A stretch of 24,212 nt of DNA from a virus (Duplodnaviria; Caudoviricetes). The notes under the pieces are model-generated. The model was not told where the DNA came from. It was given only the letters and a program-made list of their open reading frames with translations, and made no database searches. The DNA is taken from positions 1 to 24,212 of the IMG/VR virus record IMGVR_UViG_3300037755_000118, one strand, 5' to 3'. A program made the translations under genes and the position numbers. This document shows, one piece after another, positions 1,156 to 22,295 of the stretch. The stretch's first letter is position 1. Every line of letters starts with the position of its first letter.

Positions 1156-1379
1156 TGATGGCGCACATCAAGCGGGATGGAACGGGTAGGCGATTGTGCG
1201 ATACGACGGGGTGCGATCAACCAGCGACGCACTATTATAAGGTTTACCGGGATGCTGTGGGGTGCGAGAAACACGCACTGGAGACATGCCGGGCGGGGCG
1301 CTCGTATGGGGTGTATGGACTGGAACAAACGATCCGTCCGCTGCGGGATGATGAGCAGTTTGTGACCGAAGATAAGTGA
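1155..1379 (+). CDS. hypothetical protein, possible Zn-binding (CxxxxC...CxxH)
   Basis: Start overlaps the previous stop, with AAGG upstream. Contains CDTTGC and CEKH motifs. Confidence 0.65.
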   Translation: MMAHIKRDGTGRRLCDTTGCDQPATHYYKVYRDAVGCEKHALETCRAGRSYGVYGLEQTIRPLRDDEQFVTEDK

Positions 1380-1390
1380 GTTTATGGAAG
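1370..1390 (-). repeat. dif-like junction site 1
   Basis: Minus strand CTTCCATAA-ACTCAC-TTATCT. Overlaps the stop of 1155-1379. Confidence 0.7.
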
Positions 1391-1407
1391 GGTGGAACTG
1401 AGGACAT

Positions 1408-2109
1408 ATGAACGATTATATTTCTGAGTATCCGGTGCAGCGTGGGTTTTCGACTGTCTCCGCGATTTATGATCTGGTCGCAGGGCGTGGGTTCATTGGC
1501 GGCAGCTACGCGGCGTTTATGGTCGCGCCGATGTCTGACCGGCGGGTGAATGGACGGGCGATGTTTGCGCCGTTTCTGCCGAATGATATTGATGTGTTCG
1601 CTACGAGCGGTGATGCAGCACGAGCGATTGCCAACGATCTTTACGACTGCATGGGGATGACCTGGGATATTGAAACGGATGTAGCTTACAGCATGACGCC
1701 TCAAGGGGATGAACCGGCTCTACCCGTCCAGGTCGTCAAGCCGCATCCTGACTGGAAAAAGTTTCCTGAAGACATTCTACAAAGTTTTGACATGGATGTG
1801 TGCCGGGCAGTATTGATCTCGCCGAATACGATTCTGGCTGACCAAAACGCAGGTGCAGATTTGGGTAAACTACTGCGGATTAATCACCCGCTGCGCTCGC
1901 TGAAACGTGTGCTGAAGTATCACGCTCGCGGGGTGAGCTTTAACGAATGGGAGCTGCTGAAGGTCTTCCGGGCGTGGGATCAGATGAAACCGGAGGATAA
2001 GCAGGCGTTGATCGACGCGCATGATCCGCAAAATAAACTGGGTTCAAGTTCTTACGATGGTGATCCGTATGACTGGTACGATGACGACGACTGGTTCGAG
2101 GGTGAATAG
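1408..2109 (+). CDS. nucleotidyltransferase-like protein (pol-beta superfamily)
   Basis: GAGG RBS. Motifs FIGGSYA...PNDIDVF (hG[GS]...DxD) and FDMDVC, as in CCA/poly(A)-polymerase-like head domains. Very acidic C-terminus. Confidence 0.65.
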   Translation: MNDYISEYPVQRGFSTVSAIYDLVAGRGFIGGSYAAFMVAPMSDRRVNGRAMFAPFLPNDIDVFATSGDAARAIANDLYDCMGMTWDIETDVAYSMTPQGDEPALPVQVVKPHPDWKKFPEDILQSFDMDVCRAVLISPNTILADQNAGADLGKLLRINHPLRSLKRVLKYHARGVSFNEWELLKVFRAWDQMKPEDKQALIDAHDPQNKLGSSSYDGDPYDWYDDDDWFEGE

Positions 2110-2137
2110 TCCAACGACCTGCCGATAGGGTGGTGAG

Positions 2138-2173
2138 GAGCGCAGTAGACTATAGAGTCCGCTGCGCTCTTTT
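2138..2173 (+). terminator. intrinsic terminator-like hairpin
   Basis: GAGCGCAG (2138-2145) pairs with CTGCGCTC (2162-2169), followed by TTTT, just downstream of the 2109 stop. Confidence 0.65.
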
Positions 2174-2178
2174 GGTTT

Positions 2179-2209
2179 GCCGATTTGCCTATATGGAGGC
2201 GGTTACACT
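2179..2209 (+). promoter_or_regulatory. putative promoter, GCCGAT-N19-TACACT
   Basis: One of six GCCGWT-N17-19-(-10-like) motifs. Precedes the HTH/terS genes. Confidence 0.55.
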
Positions 2210-2232
2210 GTAGGGGAATATAGGCAAGGTGC

Positions 2233-2490
2233 ATGAGGGATTTTGGCGTGAGTACGTTTGAATTTGCGGTGCTGCGGGCACTTCACCAGGCGAAACGGGA
2301 TTTGCGGCGGTCTGTTCCGACGTATGCATTACAAGCGCGGCTGAATGTGATGATCCCGGAGCGGACGCTGCGGTATCACCTGCGGAAGCTGGAGATGCGT
2401 GGGTATGTGGCGCGTCCAGAGGGGCATCGCAGCGGGTGGGCGTGCAGCCTGCCTGTCGAGCGTGGGTTACGGGTTCGGTTAGCAGGATAA
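2233..2490 (+). CDS. winged helix-turn-helix DNA-binding protein
   Basis: AAGGT RBS. wHTH-like pattern PTYALQARL...PERTLRYHLRKLEMRGYV. Confidence 0.7.
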   Translation: MRDFGVSTFEFAVLRALHQAKRDLRRSVPTYALQARLNVMIPERTLRYHLRKLEMRGYVARPEGHRSGWACSLPVERGLRVRLAG

Positions 2491-2557
2491 GACTTTCGTA
2501 TAGTGAGGATTGATCGCCCAAAAAGAGGGCGATTAAGTCGGAATTGTCACACGACCT

Positions 2558-2974: not shown

Positions 2975-3012
2975 CCCCCACCCCTAGCCCCTCCCCCATA
3001 AAGAGGGAGGGG
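2975..3012 (+). repeat. C-rich/G-rich REP-like hairpin repeat, copy 1
   Basis: CCCCCACCCCTAGCCCCTCCCCCATAAAGAGGGAGGGG. Near-identical copies at 7444, 21478 and 22283. Confidence 0.85.
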
Positions 3013-3089
3013 AATCATTGAGGCAGTGTGTTAATTCGGGAAGCTGCCCGGCGGAAGAATATTTGTACAAGGTTCATTATCGCAGCGGG

Positions 3090-3110
3090 TGATAAGAGCA
3101 TTTATGACAG
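3090..3110 (-). repeat. dif-like junction site 2
   Basis: Minus strand CTGTCATAA-ATGCTC-TTATCA, 8 bp before the ATG at 3119. Confidence 0.8.
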
Positions 3111-3118
3111 GTTGAATT

Positions 3119-3481: not shown

Positions 3482-5130
3482 CGGATGTAATCAAGATCAT
3501 CGAGCCAGCAACCCGTGTTATACGCATTGCGGGGCTGCGGGGGCCACAGGGTGAGCAGGGTCCGGTAGGGGGGGAGATTCCGGGCACGCCGACGATCACC
3601 AGTTTTGCAAATGCCCAACACGATCATCTGGACGCGGAGGGCGGTGGGCAGATCACGGCGGCGGCATTGAGTGATTTCGCATCGGCGGTGGCGGCGAATG
3701 CGGCGGTGGCAGCGAATACGACGCATCGTGGTCTGACGAACAATCCCCATGCTGTGACGAAGACGCAGGTGGGGCTTGGGAATGTGCCGGATGTGGACGC
3801 CAGGGCGAGAGCTACCCACACGGGTACGCAGACGGCGAACACGATCAGTGACTTTGCATCGGCGGTATCTGCGAATGGGGATGTGGCGGCGGCGGCGGCG
3901 CATATCCTGGATACGGATAATCCGCATGAGGTGAACGCGGCGGATGTGGGGCTGGGGAATGTCCCAAATGTGGACGCAACAGCACGAGCGAATCATACGG
4001 GTACGCAGGCTGCCAGCACAATCAGTGACTTTGCATCGGCGGTATCTGCGAATGGGGATGTGGCGGCGGCGGCGGCGCATATCCTGGATACGGACAATCC
4101 GCACGAGGTGAACGCGGCAGATGTGGGACTGGGGAATGTCCCGAATGTGGATGCGACGAACGCCGATAATATCTCTTCTGGTACCCTGGATGCGGCGCGG
4201 CTGCCTGCGTTGCGGTTCTTGCAAAACCACTTCATCAACGGTGACATGGACATTCAGCAGCGGTACGCTGGAGCGCCGATTTCGTGCCCGGTGGCAACGC
4301 GCACCTACCTGAAGGATCGATGGTTTACGACGCCTACTGGTGCGACGGTGACGGCTAACCCCGACGTTTTGAACAATGGCGGCACGAAGGGGAGTCTGAA
4401 GATTACAGGGGCGACGAGTGCAACGACGGTGATTATTGCAGGTCAGTGTATTGAGGCTACTGCTGTTCCGGCGATCAAGGGCACGATTACGATCAGCGCG
4501 GCTATTTATAACGAGACTGGAAGCGCATTCACACCGACCTTATTGATCGAGACGGCTGATGCTGAGGACAATTTTTCCGCGACGACGAATCGATTGACGC
4601 AGGCCCTACAATCGTGCAGCAATGGCGCATTTACGACGGTTTCTCACACGGTGGACATCAGCGGCTTTACTAATGTAAACAATGGGGTGATGGTTCGTAT
4701 TCAGACGCCATCCGGTGCGCTGGATGCGAGTTCTAAACACGTTTATATCACTGAAATTCAACTGCTGAGAAGCAGTGTGTTACTGCCATTCCACGCGATA
4801 CCAACTGCGATAAGCCTGACAATGTGTAAGCGGTTCGCTGAGGTGCTTGGATCGGGGTTCACCGGTGTATGGCTCGGATCAACAGTTGTGAATGTGGGTG
4901 GGCAATGGCAGGAGAAGCGTGCTGCGCCGACAGCGACTTTGTTGACGAGTACACCCGCAGCACACGAGGCGGGTGTTACGGTGCGAAATGGGTCTGGCAG
5001 CAGCATTATCGCATCCAACCTGACGATCAGCGGGGGGCGTATTGCACTGGACGGGTTTACGGGTGCTACTGGCGGGAATATGGCAACGATTGACACTGAA
5101 CGATTAATTTTGTTAACAGCGGAGTTTTAG
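3478..5130 (+). CDS. tail (or head) fibre / receptor-binding protein
   Basis: Short collagen-like GPQGEQGP, repeated H...NPH.V....VGLGNVPN and RANHTGTQ.A.TISDF fibre motifs, then a C-terminal domain starting N.FINGDMDIQQR and ending LTAEF. Confidence 0.8.
   Translation: MTDVIKIIEPATRVIRIAGLRGPQGEQGPVGGEIPGTPTITSFANAQHDHLDAEGGGQITAAALSDFASAVAANAAVAANTTHRGLTNNPHAVTKTQVGLGNVPDVDARARATHTGTQTANTISDFASAVSANGDVAAAAAHILDTDNPHEVNAADVGLGNVPNVDATARANHTGTQAASTISDFASAVSANGDVAAAAAHILDTDNPHEVNAADVGLGNVPNVDATNADNISSGTLDAARLPALRFLQNHFINGDMDIQQRYAGAPISCPVATRTYLKDRWFTTPTGATVTANPDVLNNGGTKGSLKITGATSATTVIIAGQCIEATAVPAIKGTITISAAIYNETGSAFTPTLLIETADAEDNFSATTNRLTQALQSCSNGAFTTVSHTVDISGFTNVNNGVMVRIQTPSGALDASSKHVYITEIQLLRSSVLLPFHAIPTAISLTMCKRFAEVLGSGFTGVWLGSTVVNVGGQWQEKRAAPTATLLTSTPAAHEAGVTVRNGSGSSIIASNLTISGGRIALDGFTGATGGNMATIDTERLILLTAEF
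3667..4155 (+). repeat. 177-bp (59-aa) tandem repeat in the fibre shaft, ~2.8 copies
   Basis: ATCAGTGACTTTGCATCGGCGGTATCTGCG occurs at 3844 and 4021 (period 177), with a more diverged copy at 3667. Confidence 0.9.
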
Positions 5131-5131
5131 C

Positions 5132-5398: not shown

Positions 5399-5402
5399 GG
5401 TT

Positions 5403-5423
5403 CGATAACGTGTTTTATGGCAG
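5403..5423 (-). repeat. dif-like junction site 3
   Basis: Minus strand CTGCCATAA-AACACG-TTATCG. Fills most of the 30-bp gap between 5398 and the terL ATG. Confidence 0.8.
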
Positions 5424-5428
5424 GGTGA

Positions 5429-6808
5429 ATGGACGCTGAATCGTTGGCGGCGGCGTGGGCAGAGCGTGTGACGGGGACTCCGGCGCACGTTTTATTTTCC
5501 CGGCGGGAGTGGGAGCTGCGGGGGAATAATGCGCGGCTGCATGAGTTGACTGAACAATCTGAGGTGCTGCTGGTGGGGGCTGCGGGCACGGGTAAGACGC
5601 TGGCGATCCTGGCGTTTTTGCATGAGGTGGCGCTGACGTATGCGGGGGCGCGTTTCCTGATTGTGCGTAAGGTGCGGGCTGACCTGGCGGATAGTGTACT
5701 GGTGACATTTGAGCGGGATATTCTGGGGGAGGATAACCCGATCTGCGCGAATGTGCAGCGGCTGTACCGGAAGGTGTACATCTACCCAAACGGCAGCGAG
5801 ATTGTGGTGGGGGGGATGGATCGACCTGGGCGAATCCTGTCGTCCGAGTATGACATTATCTATGCGGCGGAGGCGGTGCAGCTTGACCTGGAGGATTGGG
5901 AAACGCTGGTGATGCGTAACCGCTCGACGATTGTGCCGTTCCAGATGGTGATCGGGGATACGAACCCGGATCGTCCTGACCACTGGCTGAAAAAGCGGGC
6001 GGATGAGGGTCTGCTGGTGATGCTGAATACGTATCACCAGGATAACCCGAAGTATTGGGATAACGACGCATGGACGCCTGATGGGGTGACGTATGTGCTG
6101 GGTAAGCTGCACCGTCTGACGGGGGTGCGGCGGGCGCGTTTCCTGGATGGCAAGTGGGTGATCGCGGAGGGGGCGATTTATGAGGACTGGCGTGATCCTG
6201 GGCATGTTATTCCGCGCTTTGATATTCCGCGAGGGTGGCGGCGCTTCCGGGTGGTGGACTTTGGGTATACCCATGCGTTTGTGTGCCAGTGGTGGGCGGT
6301 GGACCCGGATGGGCGGATGTATCTGCACCGCGAGATTTACATGACGCGGCGGCTGGTGAGTGACCATGCGGCGCAGATTAAGGCGCTGACGGGTGATGAG
6401 AAGATTGAGACGACGGTTTGTGACCATGACGCGGAGGGCATGGCGCAGCTTCGGGCGGCTGGCATCCCGACGACGCCTGCTAAAAAAGCGGTGACGACGG
6501 GGATTGAGAAAGTGTCGCTGCGTTTGCGTGATGCAGGGGACGGTCAACCGCGACTGTATATCTTCCAGGATGCGCTGGTGGAGCGTGATCTCGACCTGGA
6601 GGAGAGCAAGCTGCCGCTGTGTACGAAGGATGAAATTCCGGGGTACGTGTGGGCGGACACGAAGAAGCGTGAAGAGCCTGTGAAAGAGGACGATCATGGG
6701 GTGGACTGTGTGCGGTATGGGGTGATGTACCTGGATGATCGTCAGGCGGCTGCTGCGACGGCGCGGGCGGTGGGTTTCCGGGGCGGGAGACGTGGGGGGC
6801 GGCGGTAG
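5429..6808 (+). CDS. terL: terminase large subunit (PBSX-like)
   Basis: Walker A GAAGTGKT, Walker B region YDIIYAAEA, coupling motif DTNP...HWLK, nuclease motifs VDFGYTH and DDHGVDCVRY. Confidence 0.95.
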   Translation: MDAESLAAAWAERVTGTPAHVLFSRREWELRGNNARLHELTEQSEVLLVGAAGTGKTLAILAFLHEVALTYAGARFLIVRKVRADLADSVLVTFERDILGEDNPICANVQRLYRKVYIYPNGSEIVVGGMDRPGRILSSEYDIIYAAEAVQLDLEDWETLVMRNRSTIVPFQMVIGDTNPDRPDHWLKKRADEGLLVMLNTYHQDNPKYWDNDAWTPDGVTYVLGKLHRLTGVRRARFLDGKWVIAEGAIYEDWRDPGHVIPRFDIPRGWRRFRVVDFGYTHAFVCQWWAVDPDGRMYLHREIYMTRRLVSDHAAQIKALTGDEKIETTVCDHDAEGMAQLRAAGIPTTPAKKAVTTGIEKVSLRLRDAGDGQPRLYIFQDALVERDLDLEESKLPLCTKDEIPGYVWADTKKREEPVKEDDHGVDCVRYGVMYLDDRQAAAATARAVGFRGGRRGGRR

Positions 6809-7037: not shown

Positions 7038-7058
7038 TGATAAGGCGCTTTATGGCAG
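7038..7058 (-). repeat. dif-like junction site 4
   Basis: Minus strand CTGCCATAA-AGCGCC-TTATCA. Begins immediately after the TAG ending at 7037. Confidence 0.8.
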
Positions 7059-7061
7059 GTT

Positions 7062-7090
7062 GCCGATGCGGTTTTGAGGTGTGCTATGAT
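7062..7090 (+). promoter_or_regulatory. putative promoter, GCCGAT-N17-TATGAT with extended -10 (TGcTATGAT)
   Basis: Motif family member. The TG-n-TATGAT extended -10 sits directly upstream of the structured region. Confidence 0.65.
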
Positions 7091-7095
7091 GGGAA

Positions 7096-7436
7096 GAACG
7101 GAGATCGGCGCATATCGCGTCATTTTTGTTCGATGCAGTTTCCGGTCTGCTCAAAACCGGGCTTTAAAAAGCGGGGACAAAAATCGGCTTCATGCCGTGA
7201 GAGCAAACCTCCTATATCCCCGGACGCGAAAACCCTTTCATTAGGGAACGCCGCCGCAGCGATAAGAAACAGGCGTGACAGACCGGAGAGACGGTACGCT
7301 CCAGGCAGCGCGTTGGTGGTGAACCGACCTGGCGTGGACGGAAACCGCACGGAACACGCAGAGTTTGTCACTATCTCACGTGCTCCGGTAGTGAAAGTGG
7401 CTCAAAAGACCTTCGGCTATAGACGGGGGTCTTTTT
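7096..7436 (+). ncRNA. candidate structured non-coding RNA of unknown class
   Basis: Bounded by a promoter and a terminator, with no RBS-supported ORF. Many stems, including 7096-7105/7122-7131 (G-U rich), long-range 7141-7149/7279-7287, 7185-7188/7194-7197, 7233-7236/7243-7246, 7301-7305/7328-7332 and 7369-7375/7387-7393. Confidence 0.6.
7404..7436. terminator. probable bidirectional intrinsic terminator
   Basis: AAAAGACCTTCG-gctataga-CGGGGGTCTTTTT has an A-tract before and a T-tract after, between convergent units. Confidence 0.75.
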
Positions 7437-7443
7437 GATTCAA

Positions 7444-7483
7444 CCCCCACCCCCTAGCCCCCTCCCCGTAGACAGGGAGGGGG
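7444..7483 (+). repeat. C-rich/G-rich REP-like hairpin repeat, copy 2
   Basis: CCCCCACCCCCTAGCCCCCTCCCCGTAGACAGGGAGGGGG. Confidence 0.85.
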
Positions 7484-7486
7484 AAT

Positions 7487-7888
7487 TTATCGCCAGGTCT
7501 GGCGTCCTTTTTTGTGGCGGCGGTTGGGGTCGAAGGGGCGATCTTTGGGGGACTGTTTCGACTTTAGTATGTGTTGGCGGTGCTCGCGTTCGGTCTGGGG
7601 CTGCTCTCTCTGATTTGTGTAAGTATCCACCAAGTCTTTGTTCTCTTCCAGCCAGATACCCAATGGAATGACTACTTCCTTTAGGAGAGCGGCGAATACC
7701 TCTGTCATGTTCACGGCGAAGTCAACACAGACATTATTCAAATCAATAGTCACATCATAGAATGAGGGTTCGATCTTTTCCTCACTGGTTAGCGGTTTTT
7801 CCCAGGGCTGAGACACGAGGGTTTGTCCGTCGCCGATCTCGAATGTTTTACGGTTGGGGTTGTAAACAATGAGGTCTTTTGCATCCAT
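7487..7888 (-). CDS. hypothetical protein (antisense moron, ~133 aa)
   Basis: The only credible minus-strand gene. ATG 7888 has a GGAG RBS and its own extended -10. More AT-rich than its flanks. Confidence 0.7.
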   Translation of the reverse strand: MDAKDLIVYNPNRKTFEIGDGQTLVSQPWEKPLTSEEKIEPSFYDVTIDLNNVCVDFAVNMTEVFAALLKEVVIPLGIWLEENKDLVDTYTNQREQPQTEREHRQHILKSKQSPKDRPFDPNRRHKKGRQTWR

Positions 7889-7956: not shown

Positions 7957-7993
7957 CAAGAAAATGGGCAAAATTATGCAAGGTGGGATGCGA

Positions 7994-9427
7994 ATGGGCA
8001 TCAGGCAGCGGGTGAGTGAGGTGTTTGGCGGCGGCGGACGCCAGATTATTGCGGAGATCATCGGGCGGGTGAGCTACCTGGTGACGGGTGATCGGTGGAA
8101 GTGGCGGCGCTCTGATGACCGGACGCAGGCGGATTATGAATGGTATGACAATCTGCGGCGGGGCAAGCTGGAGACGTACAAGCTGGGGGCGCTGTTCGCT
8201 AAACCGATTGTGGAGCATATTACGAGCTGGGCGCTGGGCGGGGGCTTCCGGGCGAACACGGAGAGCGAGTCCACGAATGAGGCGCTGGCGGATATGGTGG
8301 ACAAGAATCTGTATGGGATCATTACGTTTGTGAAGGAAGCGATGAGCCTGGGTGATGCGTACCTGGTGATTAATGCGGATGGGACGCTGAGTGCTGTTCC
8401 GGCAAGCCAGGTGGAGGTGGAGACTGATCCACTGGATTACCGCCGGGTGGTGGCGTATACGATCACGACGAGCCTAGAGACGGCGACGATTACGGATCGA
8501 TACAGCCTGGACGCGGGGCGAGTGGTGACGATCAAGCGGGTGAATATGCCGGATGCGACGTTTCCGTATCCGCTGGTGGCGGGACGGCTGCCGGTGGTGC
8601 ATCTGCCGTATGGGGCCAGTACGAATGAGGTGTTCGGGCATCCGTTCTATGAGGCGCTGGTGCCGCTGTTCGCGGAATATGATGACGTGCTGATGAACAG
8701 TTTGCTGGGGGTGAAAACAATGTCTAACCCGATCCCGGCGCTGGAAGACGTGGAGGATCCGGCGGCGGAACTGAAGGCGCTGGCGACGAGCACGGAGACG
8801 TACCGGGACAGCGCGGGGAATACGCAGACGGGGGCGGTGATTGACATTGATGCGCTGCGGATCGTGGCGACGACGGGCAAGTTCAATTACAAGGGTCCGG
8901 CGGCGTTCACGGCGGATAGCTGGCAGATGCTGAAGGCGCTGTTCCTGCTGATGCTGCAACACTCGAACGTCCCGGAGTGGGTGTGGGGTGGGGCGATTGC
9001 GTCGAGCAAGGCGAGTGTGGATGCACAAATGCCAGCGTGGAGTAAGTTCATTGAGATGCAGCGGATGATGCTCGAGGTCACGATCCGGGAGCTTCTGGAA
9101 ATCTGGCTGGCGACGATCAGCCTGTATACACCTGGGGTACAATGGAATCTAGAGATTGAGATCGAATGGCCGGAAGTCGCCCCGGCTGACCAGGCGATGC
9201 ACCTTGCCTACGTAGCAAGGGCGGGTGACAAGGGGCTGATTACCGAAGAGTGCGAGCTTGAGCTGCTGGACCTGGTGAAGGATGCAGCGGCGGAAGTGGC
9301 GGCTGCACGGGCTGAAGCGCAGACGCGGCAGGCGGAACGTGATCCCATCGGGGATGGGTGGGAGCGTGCGCTGGACGAGGCGCGACGGAATCTGGATATG
9401 CGGGATGAAGAGGCTGAGGCGGCATGA
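7994..9427 (+). CDS. portal protein
   Basis: ~477 aa after terL, with AKPIVEHITSWALGGGF, AMSLGDAYL, PVVHL...NEVFGHP, VPEWVWG and IEWPEV. Start placed at ATG 7994 (or 7988) after AAGGTGGG, not at 7823. Confidence 0.85.
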   Translation: MGIRQRVSEVFGGGGRQIIAEIIGRVSYLVTGDRWKWRRSDDRTQADYEWYDNLRRGKLETYKLGALFAKPIVEHITSWALGGGFRANTESESTNEALADMVDKNLYGIITFVKEAMSLGDAYLVINADGTLSAVPASQVEVETDPLDYRRVVAYTITTSLETATITDRYSLDAGRVVTIKRVNMPDATFPYPLVAGRLPVVHLPYGASTNEVFGHPFYEALVPLFAEYDDVLMNSLLGVKTMSNPIPALEDVEDPAAELKALATSTETYRDSAGNTQTGAVIDIDALRIVATTGKFNYKGPAAFTADSWQMLKALFLLMLQHSNVPEWVWGGAIASSKASVDAQMPAWSKFIEMQRMMLEVTIRELLEIWLATISLYTPGVQWNLEIEIEWPEVAPADQAMHLAYVARAGDKGLITEECELELLDLVKDAAAEVAAARAEAQTRQAERDPIGDGWERALDEARRNLDMRDEEAEAA

Positions 9428-9666: not shown

Positions 9667-9687
9667 CTGACAGAAAGTGCGTTATCG
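9667..9687 (+). repeat. dif-like junction site 5
   Basis: CTGACAGAA-AGTGCG-TTATCG, 6 bp after the stop at 9660. Confidence 0.8.
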
Positions 9688-10088: not shown

Positions 10089-10335
10089 GACAAAGAGCCT
10101 GGCGGCTGTAATGCGGAAGATTGGCGAACACTGCGAATACCCGGAGCTGGTGCGGATGCGTGGGCAAATCCTGCTGGCGTATGACAAGAATAAGGCGTCG
10201 CGGGATAACCTGGTGTTTGTTGAACCTGTGGAGATCGCTGGGCATGTGCTGGCGCGGATCGAGGCGGGTGAGGCGGTGGGCGATATTCTGGACATGCAGC
10301 CTGAAGAACTGCTGAGGGCGGTACGTGGCGACTAG
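10081..10335 (+). CDS. hypothetical protein
   Basis: Overlaps both neighbours in operon fashion, with core-type codon usage. Confidence 0.65.
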   Translation: MTETKSLAAVMRKIGEHCEYPELVRMRGQILLAYDKNKASRDNLVFVEPVEIAGHVLARIEAGEAVGDILDMQPEELLRAVRGD

Positions 10336-11401
10336 GGTGATTCGGGATGCACGGCTGCTGCCTGGGGCGCAGGTGCGTTTCAAGCGGGCGTATACGGGTT
10401 TGATGGGTGAAGCCTCGGCGGGGATTGCCGGGGTTTTGCTGCGTGAATCGGTGGACGGCAAAATCCCGGTGCGGCGGGCGGATGTGGTCGCGGCGGCGGC
10501 GGGTGATGTGGTGCAGCAGGTGTTTGTGGTGGATGGGCGGCGGAGTGTGGACGCGGATGGTGTGCCGCTGTCGCCGTATGCACGAGCGCTGCTGACGGAG
10601 GTATACGCCGTTGCGGTAGGTGTGGTGAATCGTCATGCGGATTTTATGGAGCGGCATCTGGACGAGGAGACGCGGCTGCTGCTGAATATGCAGTCGCGGC
10701 GGATCAGCGAGCAGGGTCCGCACCGGCTGTTTGAACCGAAACCGCTGGCGTTCTACGAACCTGCTCATACGTGGGTCGATCCCAGGGGATATGTTCTGTC
10801 TCAGCGCATCTGGCAGAACGGGGTGCGGACGCGGCAGAACCTGGACGATCTGCTGACGGATTTGATCCGGCAGGGGGTGGGCAGCCAGCAGATTGCGCGG
10901 CAGGTGGAACGGTATCTTCTGCCAGGACGGGCGAAAATCCGCACGAATAAGCCCTATGGGAGTGATGCGAGCTTTGACGCGATGCGGCTGGCGCGGACGG
11001 AGATCAGCCGGGCGCACAATCAGGCGTCGTGGGTGGCGGCGTACCTGAACCCGTATGTGGATCAGATTCGGGTGATGCGTTCGCCGAGTGGGGATGCGAG
11101 ATGCCCGATCTGCCTGGAGCACGCGGGACCGGTGGGCGGCGAGGGGATTGTCTACGAGATGAATTCGGGCACGATCCCGCCATTTCATCCGCACTGCATG
11201 TGCCGGGTTGATGCGGAGGTGACGCGATCCCCTGATGATGTGACGGGCGAACTGCGCGATATGCTGCGCGATGCGGAGCGGGAGCTGATCCCGATGGTGA
11301 CGCCGGTGCAGCGGGACACGTTTATTGAGATGCTGATCGGCGCGGCGGTGGCACAATTTTTGCAGCAGCTTCTGCCGATTCAATTTGAGTTAGGATTTTG
11401 A
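10325..11401 (+). CDS. head morphogenesis / minor head protein (SPP1 gp7, Mu gpF-like)
   Basis: RLARTEISRAH, CPIC and PPFHPHCMC signature motifs, downstream of portal. Confidence 0.85.
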   Translation: MATRVIRDARLLPGAQVRFKRAYTGLMGEASAGIAGVLLRESVDGKIPVRRADVVAAAAGDVVQQVFVVDGRRSVDADGVPLSPYARALLTEVYAVAVGVVNRHADFMERHLDEETRLLLNMQSRRISEQGPHRLFEPKPLAFYEPAHTWVDPRGYVLSQRIWQNGVRTRQNLDDLLTDLIRQGVGSQQIARQVERYLLPGRAKIRTNKPYGSDASFDAMRLARTEISRAHNQASWVAAYLNPYVDQIRVMRSPSGDARCPICLEHAGPVGGEGIVYEMNSGTIPPFHPHCMCRVDAEVTRSPDDVTGELRDMLRDAERELIPMVTPVQRDTFIEMLIGAAVAQFLQQLLPIQFELGF

Positions 11402-11403
11402 GT

Positions 11404-12588
11404 ATGGGCAAGCGGGTTTTGATCTTTGCGCCCACCGTTGGGCGTGGGGGTGTGCGGCGGGTGGTTGAGGCGCTGTGTGCGACGTTTGCGCGGCGGCGGA
11501 GCTGGACGTTTGATGTGCTGGGGCAGACGTATGACGAGCTGGGGGACGCGATCGCCTGGCCCGACGGGTGGAACTTTACGCAGATTCGCCCGGTGGATAA
11601 GCTGCCGCTGCACCCGGAGTTGTTCGCGTTCCTAATGTCGCATCGGGCGGACTTCTTCGCGCATCTGGCGGAGGTGGCGGGGGATTATGACCTGATATTC
11701 TGCCCTAGTCCCTGGTGGGCGTTCATTGGTAGCTATCCGGTTGAGACGCCGGTGGTGAGCTTCATCCCGGATTTCGCGTTCGACTTCGGGATTGTGGGCA
11801 GCACGCTGGAGGCTTACTTCCGGGGTATATCGCCGATCATCGCCAAACATTCGGCGCATGTGGTGTTCCCGTCGGATGGTGTGCGGCATCACGGCGAGGA
11901 GCGGTACGGGATGACGGGCAGCACGATCTACTTCAGCACGGATATTGCGGCGAGCGGAGGGGATGATAAATATTCTTCTGTGAGGCTGAAGTATGGTTTG
12001 CCGGAGCAGTATGTGCTGGCATTTCACTGCTATGGACATAAGGGCGCGGAGGTGATTATCCGGGGGCAGGAATACGCCAGGCGGCGGAGCAAGTATGTGC
12101 CTCCGCTGGTGATCGCGGGGTTGCAGACGCAGTATTACCTGGATGCCGTGCCCGTTAATTCGCATGTGAAAATGATCCAGGACACGATCCGCCAGTGCAG
12201 CGGGACGGTGGGGCGGGATGTGTTTATCCTGGGGGCGGTAAGCGACGAGGAGATGAACGCGCTGCACGTGGGCGCGACGGTGGCAGTGACGGCGACTCGG
12301 AGCGAGGGCGGGCTATCCGGGACGATGCTGGAAGCGATACGGACGGGTACGCCGCTGGTGTGTTCAGAGCTGGATGTTTTCCGGGAGCGGCTGACGGAAT
12401 GGAATGTGAGCTTCTTCCCGGTAGACGATCATGCGGCGCTGGGTGAGCAGTTGATCCGGGTGTGCCGGAATCGGATTGTGTATGCGGGAAACGCGGGAGA
12501 AACGCGGGAGCAATTTGCCAAATATACGATGACCGATGTAGCAGGGCAATACATCGATGTGTTTGAGAGGGTAATCAATGGACGATAA
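11404..12588 (+). CDS. glycosyltransferase, GT-B fold (GT4-like)
   Basis: N-terminal [11 protein letters not shown], and C-terminal [24 protein letters not shown] donor-binding motif. Alternative start TTG 11398. Confidence 0.85.
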
Positions 12589-13234
12589 GACACTGATGAT
12601 TTTTGGCGCGGGTGGGGCGGCACGGGATGCGGCGCACGTCGCGGTGAGTATGGGCGGCTGGCAGGTGTGGGGAATGATTGAGCGGGATACTGAGGCATGG
12701 GCGCTGGCGCAGGTCAACGAATGCCATGCGGTGATTGGCATCGGGCAACCGGGTGTGATCCGCAGTATTCATGAGCGGATGCTGAAGCGGGAGGGCATCT
12801 GCTGGGCGAACATTATCCATCCACGTGCGGACATGGGGCATGTGGTGAGCATGGGGAGCGGGAATATTATCGCTTCGGGCGCGACGTTCGCGGTGGATAT
12901 TACGATGGGGCACTGCAACAACATCAACCTGAACGCGACGATTGGGCATGACTGCAATATTGGGAATTACTGTGTGGTGCTGCCTGGGGCGAATGTGTCG
13001 GGCAATGTCATCCTGGAAGATGAAGTCCTGATTGGCAGCGGCGCGGTGGTGCTGCCTGGCGTGCGTATCGGCGCGGGCGCGGTGGTGGGTGCGGGTGCTG
13101 TCGTGACGCGGGATGTGCTGCCGGGTATGACGGTGGTGGGTGTTCCGGCGCGGATGCTGGTTAAGACAGAGGGGTATGATCCGCTGGCAAATGGGGCGCA
13201 CCTGATCCCGGATTTCTGGGGGAATAGGGGATGA
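12578..13234 (+). CDS. sugar N-/O-acetyltransferase (PglD/PerB/NeuD family, left-handed beta-helix)
   Basis: [10 protein letters not shown]-terminus, IGIG.P, NIIHP, IGHDC, hexapeptide repeats and VVGVPAR. Confidence 0.92.
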
Positions 13235-14310: not shown

Positions 14311-14331
14311 CGGGCAGAATATCTATTATCG
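14311..14331 (+). repeat. dif-like junction site 6
   Basis: CGGGCAGAA-TATCTA-TTATCG, 9 bp after the aminotransferase stop. Confidence 0.7.
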
Positions 14332-14561: not shown

Positions 14562-14836
14562 AATTAAGTCACAATCAGCTATTTGTCCTTGAGTACGGGG
14601 CAAGGAAAGGCGGAAAGTTCAATAACCTTGTCTACCCCGGAACGCTCAAGTTACCCAAAGGTCACACCAGGGCATTAAATGCACATACACTGAAGAGTCT
14701 GGAAAAGTTGGATTTGCTAGTGTGCGTATCGGGTTTTCCGGGCGGTATCGGCAGTCGTTACCAATTGACCAAAGAAGGTCTGAAAATCGGCAGGAAACAA
14801 GCCCGTCTGCGAGGGCGGGGTTTACTGAAGAATTGA
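14558..14836 (+). CDS. hypothetical basic protein, possible winged-helix
   Basis: GGAGG RBS and ATGA overlap. MKLSHNQ...TLKSLEKLDLL...YQLTKEG resembles wHTH proteins. Confidence 0.6.
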   Translation: MKLSHNQLFVLEYGARKGGKFNNLVYPGTLKLPKGHTRALNAHTLKSLEKLDLLVCVSGFPGGIGSRYQLTKEGLKIGRKQARLRGRGLLKN

Positions 14837-14838
14837 GA

Positions 14839-14859
14839 GCTACAGAAAACAACTTATCG
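14839..14859 (+). repeat. dif-like junction site 7
   Basis: GCTACAGAA-AACAAC-TTATCG, 2 bp after the stop at 14836. Confidence 0.75.
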
Positions 14860-15435: not shown

Positions 15436-15456
15436 CTGACATAAAGGTGGTTATCG
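15436..15456 (+). repeat. dif-like junction site 8
   Basis: CTGACATAA-AGGTGG-TTATCG, 6 bp after the stop at 15429. Confidence 0.8.
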
Positions 15457-16683: not shown

Positions 16684-16704
16684 CGATAACCGCTCTTCTG
16701 TAAG
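16684..16704 (-). repeat. dif-like junction site 9
   Basis: Minus strand CTTACAGAA-GAGCGG-TTATCG, in the 16638-16734 intergenic gap. Confidence 0.75.
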
Positions 16705-16734: not shown

Positions 16735-17130
16735 ATGCCAGATTTGGTTTTTACAGCAGCAAATGTTCGGGCGAAGGATACCTTTGCCCTGATGAGTCAA
16801 TTCGAGGCAGCGGCGGCGGTTGAACTGGGCGAGGCATGTGAACTGCTGGATACCGGGGCGATCCGCAAGACTGCCGACGATAGTGCAGGGTTCGAGGGCA
16901 TTATCGTATCGACGGAAAATAAAGGGACCACAGCAGCGGCTGGTGAAATGGTCGGCGTGGTTTCGTTTGGTGATGTGGTCGGGTTTGAAGACCTGACACC
17001 GGGCGCTCTGTACTATCTGAGCGCGAATGCGGGCAATATTGCCGACACGGGCACGATTGCTATTGCGTATGCGGTGGATGAGCAGACCTTGCGGGTGATG
17101 CCTGCGCTGGCTGACCGTCCTTATCAATAG
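16735..17130 (+). CDS. head decoration / capsid cement protein
   Basis: 131 aa, Ala/Gly-rich, with G.V.GF..LTPGALYYLS...G.I, between scaffold and capsid genes. GAGG RBS. Confidence 0.7.
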   Translation: MPDLVFTAANVRAKDTFALMSQFEAAAAVELGEACELLDTGAIRKTADDSAGFEGIIVSTENKGTTAAAGEMVGVVSFGDVVGFEDLTPGALYYLSANAGNIADTGTIAIAYAVDEQTLRVMPALADRPYQ

Positions 17131-17162
17131 TCCAGTCCGGTAAATGAGGAGGAATAAATCTC

Positions 17163-18296
17163 ATGGCAGGAATTTTAGGACCGCGTGCAGCGGTTGATGC
17201 AGCAACCCTCCCGACTGGCGTCGATGGGGCGAGGATACTGGCGTTCCAATTACGGAACGGTAAGACAACGGGGCAGATCATCGGTGAGGTGGCGTCCGGG
17301 ATCGGGCTGGTAAACCAGCAGATCGCCAACAAGTTTGGGCGGTTTGTGTACTTTACCGATGCCCCTTATGCGTATTATGCGGGGGGTACGGGCGGCGGAC
17401 GGCGCATGACGCCGATCAAGGTCGAGTTCAAGCAGGCGGACGGTGTTCGCAGCGTGGACGGCGGGCATATGCTGCCGCTGAAGGACTTTGAGGATGCGCT
17501 GGCGTGGACGCCTTTGTACCTGCGCGATGCTCGTGACGCCCAGATCAGCAGCGATGTGAATCTGATCGTCGAGAGCTGGCGCAACCGGGTGCATGACGAC
17601 TTCTATCGCCGTATTCTCACTGACAATGAGAATGCACAGGGCGGCGGGTACGATGTACCCTGGGCAATCGGGACGGGCGTGAACGTGCCTTTTATCCCGC
17701 AGCAGTACGGGACATATGAGTTCGACAGCACGCATACGCACTTCCTGGCGTCGGCAACGACGACGAGTGCGGAACATGATGTCCTGATGGAGCAGGCGGT
17801 TGAACATCTGATCCATCACGGGTTCACGGGCCCGTTTACTCTGCTAGTCAGCCGGGCAGATGTGGCGCTGTATGACATCGCCAAGAAATTCGTGCGGCTT
17901 CTGCCGACGGGCGTCACTGCCGTTGGCGGGAACACTGACTCGCCGGTGTTGGTCAGCCCGCAGGATTTGAGCGGCGCTCCTGGTGAAGTGTTCGGGTTAT
18001 GGATCAGCAAGTTCGGTTCGGTTGTCATCCTACGGAACGATCCGTTCATCCCGACTGGCTATGCCTGGATGGGTGTGAGCTTCGGGGAGAATAACCCAAT
18101 GAACCCGGTGGCGATCCGTGTGCATCCAAGCGAAATGTTTGGGCTGCGGCTCGATCCACAGGGGACGAAGAGTCTCATCAACCCGGAACTGGAGAAGGTG
18201 CTGGTGAAGGGTACGCACGGTGTGGGCGTCAATAACCGTCTGGGCGGTGTGGCGATCCACTGGGGCACTTCAAGCTGGACTGATCCGACGTTGTAA
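17163..18296 (+). CDS. major capsid protein
   Basis: 377 aa with a strong GAGGAGG RBS, in the canonical position after protease/scaffold and decoration. C-terminal HGVGVNNRLGGV. Confidence 0.75.
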   Translation: MAGILGPRAAVDAATLPTGVDGARILAFQLRNGKTTGQIIGEVASGIGLVNQQIANKFGRFVYFTDAPYAYYAGGTGGGRRMTPIKVEFKQADGVRSVDGGHMLPLKDFEDALAWTPLYLRDARDAQISSDVNLIVESWRNRVHDDFYRRILTDNENAQGGGYDVPWAIGTGVNVPFIPQQYGTYEFDSTHTHFLASATTTSAEHDVLMEQAVEHLIHHGFTGPFTLLVSRADVALYDIAKKFVRLLPTGVTAVGGNTDSPVLVSPQDLSGAPGEVFGLWISKFGSVVILRNDPFIPTGYAWMGVSFGENNPMNPVAIRVHPSEMFGLRLDPQGTKSLINPELEKVLVKGTHGVGVNNRLGGVAIHWGTSSWTDPTL

Positions 18297-18301
18297 TCAG
18301 G

Positions 18302-18322
18302 CTGACAGAATGACCCTTATCA
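18302..18322 (+). repeat. dif-like junction site 10
   Basis: CTGACAGAA-TGACCC-TTATCA, 5 bp after the capsid stop. Contains the ATG (18310) of the next gene. Confidence 0.8.
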
Positions 18323-19332
18323 ACAATGGGGCGCACAGCCGTGCGCCCCTACCGGCTATCAACTTCTATAACGCGAACGGCTGCAACCCGTACACCGGGT
18401 ATGGCAAGCTGGAGCTGTCGCTGGCGCGGGCGCTGACGAATGCGGGTGTGCGGCTGAACGTGTACCCCGACCCGGATGCGCCGACTTTGGTCATTGGTCG
18501 GGCGGAGCGTCTGCTGGCGGATCATATCGCCCATACACGGCGGTATATCCTGACGCAGAGCGAATCGACGCGGGTGAGCCAGCGATGGGTTGATCTCATC
18601 AACTGGCACGCGGAGCTGGTGTTCGTGACGAACCCTGACCTGGTGGCAATCTACCAGGAGAGCGGGGTGAAGCGCCCGGTGGTGTGTGCGCGGCATGGGA
18701 TTGACCTGCGTGTACCCGTCCAGGCGAGCGGCTGGGATGGAGAGAGCCGGTTTGAGTGGCTGACGTATACATATGGCGACAAGCGCAAGGGCGGCGAGCT
18801 GGCGATGATGGCATTCAAAAACCTGTTCCAGCATGACGAGCGGCATCACCTGACGGTGAAGGTGCGGGACGTGGATGGCTGGATACCGGCGGTTATCAAG
18901 GGCGATGATCCACAACTGACGTTTGTGACCGGACAGCAGAGCGAGCGTGAGTGGATGGAACTGATCGCACGTTCACACTGTTTTCTGTTCCCCAGCCGGG
19001 CGGAGGGTTTTGGTATGCCGCCACGTGAGGCGACGCTGGCGGGTGTGCCGACGATTGCGACTCAGTGGCTGGGAATGGCGGATGTGGACTGCTGGGGTCT
19101 GCCGATCAAGGTGCGGGAAATGCAGCGGTCAACCTACGGTGAGTGGGACGCGAATGCTGAGGGCAGCCTGTGGGCTGAACCGGACATGACGCATCTGAAG
19201 AAACAAATGCGCTGGGTACATGAGCACTACGCTGAGGCGCGGGAAAAGGCGCGGCGCGGTGGGTGGTATCTGCGGGAGCATAACAACTGGACGGGTATGG
19301 CGGATATTATCATGCTGGAGATGGCGCGATGA
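18310..19332 (+). CDS. glycosyltransferase, GT-B fold (GT4-like)
   Basis: TGYG, HGID, RKG and FLFPSRAEGFGMPPREATLAGVPTIAT motifs. ATG 18310 is the only in-frame ATG before the conserved N-terminal motif. Confidence 0.9.
   Translation: MTLINNGAHSRAPLPAINFYNANGCNPYTGYGKLELSLARALTNAGVRLNVYPDPDAPTLVIGRAERLLADHIAHTRRYILTQSESTRVSQRWVDLINWHAELVFVTNPDLVAIYQESGVKRPVVCARHGIDLRVPVQASGWDGESRFEWLTYTYGDKRKGGELAMMAFKNLFQHDERHHLTVKVRDVDGWIPAVIKGDDPQLTFVTGQQSEREWMELIARSHCFLFPSRAEGFGMPPREATLAGVPTIATQWLGMADVDCWGLPIKVREMQRSTYGEWDANAEGSLWAEPDMTHLKKQMRWVHEHYAEAREKARRGGWYLREHNNWTGMADIIMLEMAR
18328..18352 (-). repeat. GTAG-family REP-like palindrome in the GT 5' end
   Basis: Minus strand GTAGGGGCGCAC-GGCT-GTGCGCCCC (9-bp stem). 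Confidence 0.75.
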
Positions 19333-19724: not shown

Positions 19725-20049
19725 CTGGCTGCGTGGTACACAGGACGGGCTGACGATTGGGGCGGAAACGATCCAGAAGCGCGACCTGGTGGAGATCACG
19801 ATTGCGCGGGGTACGAGTGACCTTGATCCGCAGTGCGTGCGCGTGGTTCCGTCTCGCGGCGGGAGTGAGAGCGGCGAGACACAGGGTAATAATGTGCCGA
19901 GCGCGTCGGGCGTGGTGGTGATTGGGGATGACGATCTGAACATCCGCAAGGGTGATCTGTTTGTGTTCCGGTCAACGCGCTATAAGGTGATTTATGTCAT
20001 GTCGGCGGTGGCGGGTCATGTGCAGGCATACGCGGAAGGCACGCAGTAA
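19708..20049 (+). CDS. head closure (stopper) protein
   Basis: GGGAGG RBS before ATG 19708. DLNIRKGDLF.F....YKV pattern. Gene order. Confidence 0.65.
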   Translation: MPSLDNWLRGTQDGLTIGAETIQKRDLVEITIARGTSDLDPQCVRVVPSRGGSESGETQGNNVPSASGVVVIGDDDLNIRKGDLFVFRSTRYKVIYVMSAVAGHVQAYAEGTQ

Positions 20050-20453
20050 TGGCGCGGATTGAATGGACGGGCGACGCGCAGGTGAAGGCGCAGATGGCGG
20101 CTTACGGGCGGAAGGTTCGTGAGGCGGAACTGCGGCTGCTGAAGTATTTCTCGGCAGTAATCCAGACGGAAGCGCGGCGGGATGCGTCCTGGACGGATCA
20201 AACGTCGAACGCACGGCAGGCGCTGCGGGCGTACACGAGCGATGATCCACCGGGAAAGTTTGGGGCAGGGACGCATGAGTATCCTAACCCGGCTGACCTG
20301 GCGCGGGACGCGGTGGCTTTATACCTGGCGCACGGGATGGACTATGGGTTGTTCCTGGAGACGAAGTACGCGGGCAGGTACGCCGTCATCATGCAGACGC
20401 TGCGGAAATATTACCCGGAGATCACGCGGCAGTTGAAGGCGATGTTCGGATGA
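20049..20453 (+). CDS. neck/tail completion protein (HK97 gp10-like)
   Basis: ASWTDQTSNARQAL...LAHGMDYGLFLE...GRYAVI pattern. Gene order. Confidence 0.75.
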   Translation: MARIEWTGDAQVKAQMAAYGRKVREAELRLLKYFSAVIQTEARRDASWTDQTSNARQALRAYTSDDPPGKFGAGTHEYPNPADLARDAVALYLAHGMDYGLFLETKYAGRYAVIMQTLRKYYPEITRQLKAMFG

Positions 20454-20890
20454 CGATACGGGGTGATGTGCTGGCGACACTGGACGATGATGCGACGCTG
20501 ATGGCGATCCTGACGGGCGGCATGTATGACGCGGGTCTGCTGCCTGCGGACGGGCTGACGCCAACGTCTGCCCCGGCTGCGTTTAATGGGGCGCGGGTGA
20601 AACCGTGCGGGCTGATCCGCTGGCGGAATGTGGGGGAGACTGCGATTGTCGGTTCGTCGCGGCGGCGGTTCTTCCAAATCTTCTTCTACCAGGTGGCAGG
20701 GCAGACGCAGATTGAGGCGGCTCAATCGCGCTGCCGGGTGCTGCTGCACCACAAGAAACAGTTCAAAACCAGCGGCGGGCAGGTCTACTATACGCGCTGG
20801 GTGGGTGACGTAAACGATCTCATCGCTGAGGAGCTGGACGGGGCGGCGATGGGTTACAGCGACTTTTATGCCGACTTTTTAGAGGAGTAA
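20450..20890 (+). CDS. probable tail terminator protein
   Basis: 146 aa immediately before the tail tube gene. L..DATL.A.L.G..Y N-terminus. Confidence 0.6.
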   Translation: MTIRGDVLATLDDDATLMAILTGGMYDAGLLPADGLTPTSAPAAFNGARVKPCGLIRWRNVGETAIVGSSRRRFFQIFFYQVAGQTQIEAAQSRCRVLLHHKKQFKTSGGQVYYTRWVGDVNDLIAEELDGAAMGYSDFYADFLEE

Positions 20891-20896
20891 AACATC

Positions 20897-21469
20897 ATGC
20901 CGTTAGATTTGAATCCTTATTCACTGTGGGAAATCCTGATCGCCAGCACGGACGCGGAGGCGACTGCCTACGGTACGCCGGTGACACTGTTCAAAGACCA
21001 GATGTTCACGGTGACGCCCGTCCACGATACGGATCAACAACGGGATTCCGGACAGGTGACAAGCAGCCTGAGCATTGCGACTCATGCTGATCTGACGATC
21101 CAGGCGGGCGGTATCCCGATGGAAGCGGGGATTACCATGTTAGGCGCAGCGTCTTCGACGAGCGATGACATCATCACGATCCGGCGGTACACGGCGACGA
21201 ATCGCCCGTACTTCGGGGCGCTGGGTGTCGCGCCGACGGAAGATGATCGTATCCTGGTGGTGGGGTTGTACAAGGCGCAAATCCAGGGGGACCCGGAGAT
21301 TAACTTCGACGGGACGACGAATGCGTGGATCACCAGCGAAATGAGCGCGATTGCACTGGCGAAGGCGAGTGTGATGGCGTTCGACAAATGGAAGGTGTAT
21401 CCCGATCTGGAGACATGGGAGACGGATAAGCCGACGGATGGCACGGATTTCCTGGCGTGGTTCGCTTAA
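20897..21469 (+). CDS. major tail (tube) protein
   Basis: GAGGAG RBS, 190 aa, acidic and Thr-rich, positioned before the chaperone and tape measure genes. Confidence 0.7.
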   Translation: MPLDLNPYSLWEILIASTDAEATAYGTPVTLFKDQMFTVTPVHDTDQQRDSGQVTSSLSIATHADLTIQAGGIPMEAGITMLGAASSTSDDIITIRRYTATNRPYFGALGVAPTEDDRILVVGLYKAQIQGDPEINFDGTTNAWITSEMSAIALAKASVMAFDKWKVYPDLETWETDKPTDGTDFLAWFA

Positions 21470-21477
21470 GAGTAAAT

Positions 21478-21515
21478 CCCCACCCCTGACCCCTCCCCCA
21501 TAAAGAGGGAGGGGG
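21478..21515 (+). repeat. C-rich/G-rich REP-like hairpin repeat, copy 3
   Basis: CCCCACCCCTGACCCCTCCCCCATAAAGAGGGAGGGGG. Confidence 0.85.
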
Positions 21516-21562
21516 AATGAAGTAAGTGTTAATTTGTTGAGCTGTATCGTCGAGAGGGATTT

Positions 21563-22066
21563 ATGGAAACACAAGCATTGAATGGACTGCAAATTACATC
21601 TGCGGAGGACTTCGCGCCGGAGGAGTATAAGCTCCAGCTTCCGTCGGGACGGGTGTTGATGGTGCGGGAGGTCGATCTGATTGCGCTGTTGTCGAACGGT
21701 GAAGGCGATATACCGGATTTCCTGAGCGGATATATTGAAGCAAAACTGCTAGGGAAATCTGTCAAAGAACCGGAAATCAATAAGGAAAACCTGCCGGAGT
21801 TCTTTAATTTCGTTCACTACATCATCCCCGCTGGTGTCGTAAGCCATAAGGTTGTGAAGGCAAACGCCAATCGCCAGGCGGGTGAGATCAATATAAATGA
21901 CTTGAATCCGAACGATAAGATTGTGTTGTTCAATACGGTGATGCCCCTGGAGGCGCTCACCGCTTTGTCCTTTCGCCAGAGGGTCGAAGCTGCAAATATG
22001 GAAACTGTACGAGGTGGCACTGGTGACGGGAACGCTCCCAAGCGAAATCGTCGGGCTAAAAAATAG
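21563..22066 (+). CDS. tail assembly chaperone (gpG-like)
   Basis: GAGGG RBS. Lies between tail tube and tape measure genes and overlaps a second frame. Confidence 0.75.
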   Translation: METQALNGLQITSAEDFAPEEYKLQLPSGRVLMVREVDLIALLSNGEGDIPDFLSGYIEAKLLGKSVKEPEINKENLPEFFNFVHYIIPAGVVSHKVVKANANRQAGEININDLNPNDKIVLFNTVMPLEALTALSFRQRVEAANMETVRGGTGDGNAPKRNRRAKK

Positions 22067-22295
22067 CTGGGTGAGATACTGCTTTAACCGGGCGATTGTG
22101 ACGTTTGGCAGGATGACAGAAGATAAGTTATCGCAGCGTGACAAGAGTGGACGCCCGAAGTACAAGCTGGCGCAACTGCTGGCTGAACCGCCGAAGCCTG
22201 GGGAGAAGCGGGCGGGTCCGCGCAAGATTGGCATCGGGGAGATGCTGGCGCGAGGGCTGGCGGTGGAGGTGAAGAAGGTCAACCCCACCCCCTAA
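21975..22295 (+). CDS. tail assembly chaperone frameshift extension (gpT-like)
   Basis: The +1 frame is open from 21942 to TAA 22295 and reads ...WKLYEVALVTGTLPSEIVGL...YCFNRAIVTFG. Candidate shift site TCC TTT CGC at 21968-21976. Confidence 0.65.
   Translation, partial: ARGSKLQIWKLYEVALVTGTLPSEIVGLKNSWVRYCFNRAIVTFGRMTEDKLSQRDKSGRPKYKLAQLLAEPPKPGEKRAGPRKIGIGEMLARGLAVEVKKVNPTP
22113..22133 (+). repeat. dif-like site 11 (intragenic)
   Basis: ATGACAGAA-GATAAG-TTATCG inside the chaperone extension. Confidence 0.55.

Follow-up and report, generated by a model that had tools for sequence, protein, structure and literature searches.

Dispersed ParB sites are known, among them the KorB operators of RK2 and the centromeres of N15, and bacteriophage P1 carries a single loxP site. 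P1 DNA is circularized by RecA acting on redundant ends or by Cre-lox (passages in PMC3973344), loxP having a 13-8-13 architecture (PMC10250229, in part). The pdif sites of Acinetobacter Rep_3/OrfX plasmids are numerous dif-like sites with unequal arms and a variable 6-bp spacer; they often lie between genes, and successive sites alternate in orientation (C and D modules; PMC13141974, in part). L5-type stoperators of mycobacteriophages comprise more than 10 asymmetric sites over a temperate phage genome, many of them in short intergenic spaces, with an orientation that follows transcription (PMC9283540, in part). For the Chloroflexi, dif was predicted in only three genomes, those named being Dehalococcoides (passages in PMC3025954). 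Here we describe a genome-wide array of two-armed sites, CAKAA-N6-TTATC, in the virus record IMGVR_UViG_3300037755_000118 (Duplodnaviria; Caudoviricetes); the stretch analyzed, hereafter the window, is the whole record of 24,212 bp and encodes a primase, terminases, an SPP1-like portal, MuF, sugar-modifying enzymes, capsid, tail proteins, and a tape measure. The new and central property of these sites is their even spacing. No report of such an array was found in the literature searched, which covered subscription journals thinly and main texts without supplements.

The site family is a real feature and is family-wide. Exact CAKAA-N6-TTATC occurs 14 times in the window, against a shuffle mean of 0.08 (0 of 100 shuffles reach 14), and with one mismatch allowed it occurs 15 times (mean 1.47). 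When arm-spacer lengths of 0–15 were scanned, enrichment appeared at 6 only (14 matches); length 14 gave one match. Unequal arms are a constant feature, with conservation of the right arm limited to 5–6 bases; none of the sites forms a perfect inner palindrome, and no two of the 15 spacers are the same. The original prediction had listed eleven sites, described as unequal dif-like arms around a 6-bp center that is never the same. All eleven are present with the sequences and strands it gave, and both the architecture and the diversity of centers extend to the full set; its list lacked the sites at 4165, 11965, and 23745, and that at 19981 (one mismatch). It had also placed ten sites at gene junctions. 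Ten of the 15 do lie there, and the other five fall in coding sequence (the tail-fiber, glycosyltransferase, head-closure-like, and tape-measure genes and the frame after the tail chaperone), including the site at 22117, which was among the eleven and lies in a conserved reading frame.

Arrays were found in about 25 related temperate phages or prophages (carriers G001, L013, L001, G011, G012, L019, G007, G008, G135, G194, G195, G314, G315, G318, G319, G321, G709, G710, and G713–G718), several of them within Aggregatilineales/Anaerolineae genomes. Each array has 10–17 sites and spans the whole genome; the relatives share the core AKAA-N6-TTAT(C/G), which phage-specific outer arms extend to about 26–28 bp (arms of ~10 bp). 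A site cluster in the G194 slice (28015–29703) has outer arms unlike those of the rest of that prophage and is perhaps a module imported from another phage. The named large terminase (TerL) relatives of the window belong to Aggregatilineales/Anaerolineae, so its host probably falls within them as well; the TerL of G001 is 78% identical to that of the window. A capsid-protein search of viral contigs gave no matches, nor did a single-sequence TerL search of genomes. In slices of host genomes the sites lie within the prophage: in the 80-kb slice of G195, 12 of 15 fall in its 41-kb prophage. A host-wide motif of the uptake, matS, or HIP1 kind was rejected, as five metagenome-assembled genomes held 6–59 matches in 4–7.8 Mb and controls 7–52; two of the five reached about twice their own control, and all five were far below the motif density of the window.

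Gaps between neighboring sites in the window average 1598 bp and never exceed 2632 bp, with a coefficient of variation (CV) of 0.38 (P 5e-5, the floor of 20,000 draws). The spacing also departs from a null constrained by gene junctions, in which 11 sites are assigned to randomly chosen junctions and the other 4 are placed without restriction (P 0.0005). Twelve genomes combined give P 2e-12, a test that omits G316, G317, L013, and G323 (too few core sites) and retains the irregular G194. With arrays pooled, 147 of 157 spacers are distinct, a diversity equal to that of random draws. Neighboring sites alternate in orientation in 86 of 174 pairs (P 0.94; 6 of 13 in the window), and orientation agrees with the direction of the nearest long gene, by automatic gene calls, in 101 of 193 cases (P 0.56). 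At least 52 of 268 sites lie within coding sequence that aligns to two or more other genomes, and sites have been gained within terL, portal, capsid, and tape-measure genes; one terL site coincides with an amino-acid change. Third-codon identity pooled over in-gene arms (116/267) does not exceed that of the flanks (0.47); most in-gene sites are accordingly specific to a lineage, and among aligned in-gene pairs the site is retained in 16 of 101 against 5.0 expected. Sites have therefore been gained independently, even in essential genes, and some have afterwards been retained, a pattern suggesting that what matters is where a site stands on the genome and not whether it marks a gene border.

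A candidate enzyme for these sites is encoded by the relatives. G001 encodes two tyrosine recombinases, a helix-turn-helix (HTH) repressor, ParA, and ParB; the second recombinase, of about 400 aa and absent from the window, is here called R400 and is the gene product whose presence best matches that of the arrays. Its catalytic residues (R, K, HxxR, H, Y) are intact, its predicted model has a pLDDT (predicted local distance difference test) of 82, and its best matches among solved structures are XerD, XerA, and Cre, all weak, the likeness to Cre being distant. Every viral locus with an R400 ortholog of at least 300 bits has at least one site (21/21, although several of these repeat known genomes and 1–2 sites are about background), against none of four loci with distant homologs. 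Of 24 genomes, 9 have a site in the leader of R400, where chance would give 1.75, for a slightly widened pattern and genomes that are related and hence not independent. Divergent R400 proteins accompany variant arms: G323 has 13 copies of GATAA-N6-TTCC (although its ParB shares 73% identity with that of G714 over the HTH region), and G320 has CACAA-N6-TTGTG, one copy of which lies immediately upstream of R400. Outer-arm similarity correlates with R400 similarity (Mantel r 0.28, P 0.03; partial on ParB, P 0.04–0.05). Among records of at least 35 kb, arrays are dense where R400 and a long ParB coincide, the ParB region of G715 being missing. Across 401 genomes of the class, with four candidates scored per genome, R400 had one strong and two distant matches; a site beside the distant homologs in two host genomes lay inside an unrelated orthologous gene and was discarded. 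Taken together, R400 probably binds and reads the sites. The tyrosine recombinase envisaged in the original prediction, either of host Xer type or phage-encoded, is the best fit to the architecture and has a phage-borne candidate in the relatives, its host Xer version being unlikely. In G315, two near-identical R400 copies (35304–36476 and 39680–40537), each with a leader site, flank the integrase; the pair may reflect a true duplication or arise from assembly at the end of the contig.

The other tyrosine recombinase, a 300-aa Xer-like protein, was rejected as the reader, being present without sites in G168, G192, G079, and G303. Its gene is found at one end of the prophage, opposite a tRNA gene, and is followed by a tRNA-like fragment in G001, G168, G192, and G293, an arrangement that identifies the protein as the integrase.

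We propose that the 15 sites of the window are likely targets of R400 and that R400 circularizes the infecting genome, as a distributed counterpart of P1 Cre/lox; we hold this tentatively, as something close to an even call. The terminases are PBSX/Terminase_6N-like (PF03237 matched in 16 of 26 records; TIGR01547, PBSX-like, matched below cut-off in six of seven terminases scanned), and the cos-type terminase PF03354 was found in none of 26 records. In a virion filled by headful packaging, the genome would be circularly permuted and a few kb would be present at both ends. Sites spaced 1.5–3.5 kb apart would give nearly every particle two copies of one site, both with the same spacer, and recombination of these sister sites by R400 would yield a unit circle wherever packaging had cut. 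For a redundancy of 3.5 kb, a size assumed for illustration, a randomly placed stretch always contains a site in the window (100%) and does so in 74–96% of cases in 11 relatives, against ~8–14% for a single site. Many even sites would be required only where the duplicated stretch has no set position, as with the terminal redundancy of headful genomes. That such a recombinase requires matching spacers is a working presumption in the literature (PMC10250229, in part), and pdif reactions have been reported between identical or nearly identical spacers (PMC13141974, in part). Given a spacer-matching recombinase and spacers that differ, each site would pair only with its own sister copy; sites at different positions, having unlike spacers, would produce no deletion or inversion, and the random orientation of sites is compatible with sister-site recombination. 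The unit circle would then be integrated at a tRNA gene by the separate 300-aa integrase or maintained through ParAB, and modules would be exchanged incidentally whenever related phages crossed over at homologous sites. None of the 16 array records was found to encode Rad52/Sak, Sak4, RecT, or Erf, while four of nine array-less records, including the exceptions G316, G317, and G712, have a Sak4- or Sak-like recombinase (Fisher P 0.01).

The array resembles P1 Cre/loxP in its phage-encoded tyrosine recombinase, its two-armed site with a central spacer, and the proposed circularization of a terminally redundant genome. It differs in having 10–17 even sites with different 6-bp spacers, in a recombinase only distantly like Cre, and in phages that also integrate at tRNA genes via a second recombinase. 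As proposed, then, the array works like P1 Cre/lox and is not a member of that system, since site geometry and number differ.

A number of observations weigh against circularization by R400. Its presence in the phage of the window is deduced from G001. G711 (complete) and G712 both have R400 and only two sites each, near background, and G316 (seven sites) and G317 (four) have clustered sites without R400, these two having been assigned to the array-less class only after the clustering was noticed. Dense arrays accompany R400 and long ParB together, so the two genes are hard to tell apart; the Mantel correlation is weak, and a similar value is obtained for the integrase (r 0.26). The complementarity of arrays and annealing proteins weakens to P 0.08 at 35 kb or more, many records being fragments, and five of the nine array-less records likewise lack such a recombinase. 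The spacing in G194 is irregular (CV 1.39), the third-codon comparison gives the arms of in-gene sites no excess over the flanks, and selection for unlike spacers, looked for in the pooled arrays, was not detected, the spacers being no more dissimilar than random draws; G318 has one pair of identical spacers.

Several of the same observations could be read in other ways. It is possible, if unlikely, that R400 sites serve mainly to swap gene modules among related phages and prophages, via homologous sites with matching spacers. Such a role would suit the ten junction sites of the window, which mostly adjoin accessory open reading frames (ORFs), and homology breaks do fall near a site in 4 of 76 cases against 1.1 expected, or 7 of 71 against 1.5 when either genome is counted (uniform null); breaks at junctions fall on site-bearing ones in 11 of 35 cases against 5.7 expected (P 0.02, pairs not independent). 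Homology ends at the spacer edge in G319/G315, a three-way break among G315, L265, and G710 begins at a site, and near-identical spacers are mostly kept at homologous sites of close relatives. The decoration and capsid genes of the window (16735–18296), between the sites at 16685 and 18306, match G001 at 29–33% and the flanking genes at 42–65%. This stretch reads as a replaced head module. What module exchange leaves unexplained is the even spacing and the gains in terL, portal, capsid, and tape-measure genes. Moreover, in 14 of 20 pairs of homologous sites the similarity extends to both flanks, and of the six one-sided pairs one is a hairpin insertion and others reflect drift or misalignment; sites are missing from many variable junctions, an accessory gene of the window is often bordered by a site at just one of its ends, and at 1371 the sequence common with L013 continues 8 bases beyond the arm. 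The idea of a cassette system serving the morphogenesis operon is not supported as the main function, given arrays that are genome-wide, reach into conserved coding sequence, and do not alternate. Breakpoints in relatives, the check suggested with it, go both ways, with a twofold excess of junction breaks at sites beside the many siteless variable ones, and its hybrid sites or circular modules did not appear: no recombined joint on any site was found in contigs from five sequencing runs (one possibly the source), which have a depth of ~9 or less and drop rare forms. On the sequences compared, exchange at the sites is plausible as a by-product. It is rather improbable that R400 acts on circular DNA already in the cell, whether by resolving multimers or catenanes or by relaxing or organizing the genome without exchange: the ParA and ParB encoded by these phages and the dif-type architecture would accord with it, and sister-site recombination suits free spacers and random orientation equally well, yet one site suffices to resolve dimers or multimers of a circle (dif, cer, loxP), and neither the even spacing nor the complementarity with Sak4/Sak would be expected.

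The remaining explanations assign the sites to a different protein. That they are dispersed parS-like centromeres, loading phage ParB CTPase clamps genome-wide, we regard as quite improbable. A long ParB does accompany nearly all dense arrays, G316 (ParB without R400) has seven sites while G711 and G712 (R400 without such a ParB) have two, and the 16-bp core matches the dispersed 16-bp palindrome of G014 in length and recalls the dispersed 16-bp sites of RK2 KorB and N15, replicons with ParA and ParB. The array differs from those in its free 6-bp center, which is no palindrome with a conserved middle, and in a parB that has its own, different palindrome: 17 of 23 parB genes contain a perfect 6-2-6 palindrome whose position behind the HTH region is conserved, and this palindrome is the stronger parS candidate. 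G014 and G303 encode this ParB yet lack an array, the ParB HTH regions of G323 and G714 are close although their motifs differ, and the putative recognition helix is very variable while the core is invariant. The phage parB genes concerned have one or two of these palindromes (G011 32801, G008 slice 45029, L277 3901, L278 5140, and others), which differ among phages; they may be parS, co-varying with the recognition helix. Two further site families were rejected as array variants and set apart as separate systems, their centers being partly or fully fixed and their occurrence following the gene after parA: TGCAA-N6-TTGCA in G013, G317, and G322, and CGTGACAATTGTCACG in G014. In G013 (L151–L153), G317, and G322, ParA is followed by a 230–270-aa non-ParB protein, and strict copies of TGCAA-N6-TTGCA number 12, 5, and 3, respectively; protein and sites are possibly a different partition adaptor and its centromere. 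The ParAB phage G014, which lacks R400, has five identical, parS-like 16-bp palindromes (5128, 15627, 29833, 35285, and 35864) and degenerate copies. There is also only a slight chance that a phage repressor, either the Cro/CI-like HTH protein or the winged-helix protein encoded before terS, uses the sites as operators or stoperators. Many sites lie in short intergenic spaces near gene starts, a 5-6-5 geometry suits an HTH dimer, and the spread is that of L5-type stoperators; their orientation, in contrast, is not tied to transcription, the HTH repressors of G001 and G011 have no mutual BLAST match and the cores nevertheless agree, G013 and G014 have G011-like repressors and no array, and the winged-helix gene is undetected in many array genomes yet present in G013 and G303. 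An operator family for a dimeric regulator, the main alternative in the original prediction, therefore fits less well. Least probable of all is action by host XerC/XerD, as on pdif, whatever the resemblance of the inner ATAA/AGAA-N6-TTAT and the consistent arm asymmetry to E. coli dif and, presumably, to Firmicutes dif. Like pdif, the array has unequal arms, a variable 6-bp spacer, and many intergenic sites; unlike pdif, which uses host XerC/D, its sites do not alternate, lie evenly genome-wide with many in essential genes, and have phage-specific outer arms and a phage-borne enzyme candidate. The short conserved right arm in the window is a further difficulty, and in the one closed host genome, G195, a search with its prophage consensus for a chromosomal dif-like match gave five matches in the prophage and two outside, neither convincingly dif-like.

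Sites and selected genes of the window, with positions counted from its first base
Feature	Position	Strand	Remark
Site CATAA-ACTCAC-TTATC	1371..1386	-	Junction; homologous site in L013, downstream gene there differs
Winged-helix gene before terS	2233..2490	+	Weighed as site reader, judged unlikely
Site CATAA-ATGCTC-TTATC	3091..3106	-	Conserved junction after terS; kept in L013
Site in tail-fiber gene	4165..4180	-	Kept in G001 (223), lost in L013
Site directly before terL	5404..5419	-	Kept in L013
Large terminase, Terminase_3 / PBSX-like	5429..6808	+	TIGR01547 below cut-off; basis for inferring headful packaging
Site between terL and portal	7039..7054	-	In relatives one immediately after terL stop
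SPP1 gp6-like portal	7988..9427	+	Sequence match
Site between portal and MuF, among accessory ORFs	9671..9686	+	L001 has one here, G001 none
MuF / SPP1 gp7-like minor head protein	10325..11401	+	Sequence match
Site in glycosyltransferase gene	11965..11980	-	Arms kept in G001; spacer identity 1/6
Site after DegT-like gene	14315..14330	+	Exact motif match
Site between accessory ORFs	14843..14858	+	Exact motif match
Site before scaffold/protease-like gene	15440..15455	+	Exact motif match
Site before head-decoration-like gene	16685..16700	-	Exact motif match
Site after major capsid gene, overlaps next start	18306..18321	+	Kept in G001
One-mismatch site (TTATA) in head-closure-like gene	19981..19996	-	One-mismatch scan
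Site in reading frame after tail chaperone	22117..22132	+	Arms kept in G001, spacer differs
Site in tape-measure gene	23745..23760	-	Weak flanks (position weight matrix score 13.1), not kept in G001; may be chance match

Other features of the window accompany these. Two GT4 glycosyltransferases, a hexapeptide acetyltransferase, and a DegT-type aminotransferase lie within the head operon (11398–14301 and 18310–19332) and are conserved in G001; they possibly serve virion glycosylation. The N-terminal part of the tail-fiber gene contains three 177-bp repeats (3655–4130), the site at 4165 standing right behind them. A C-rich/G-rich hairpin repeat, resembling repetitive extragenic palindromic (REP) elements, is present in four copies (2975–3028, 7445–7498, 21477–21530, and 22283–22336); similar hairpins adjoin sites in other phages and occur also in unrelated contigs of the sequencing runs. 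Between the site at 7039 and the next hairpin, about 390 bp (7055–7440) contain no convincing gene and have no Rfam match. A unitig break falls near 14831–14856.

Closure of the injected genome in temperate headful phages that lack Sak, Erf, and RecT is usually ascribed to host RecA. Dispersed dif-like sites in phages are not necessarily cassette borders, and their spacing and in-gene copies are worth checking first. In the broader form of our proposal, which we put forward as a possibility somewhat short of an even chance, the genomes of a family of Chloroflexota phages have become tiled with lox-like sites that do not recombine with one another and are served by one recombinase, such that every permutation could close on itself with neither RecA nor an annealing protein of the phage, and relatives could trade modules. 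If this is true, a genome-wide, spacer-insulated site array would be a third way of closing a phage genome, and the phages would hold a family of single-subunit tyrosine recombinases of differing arm specificity, each with 10–17 natural heterospecific sites, that would be useful for genome engineering.

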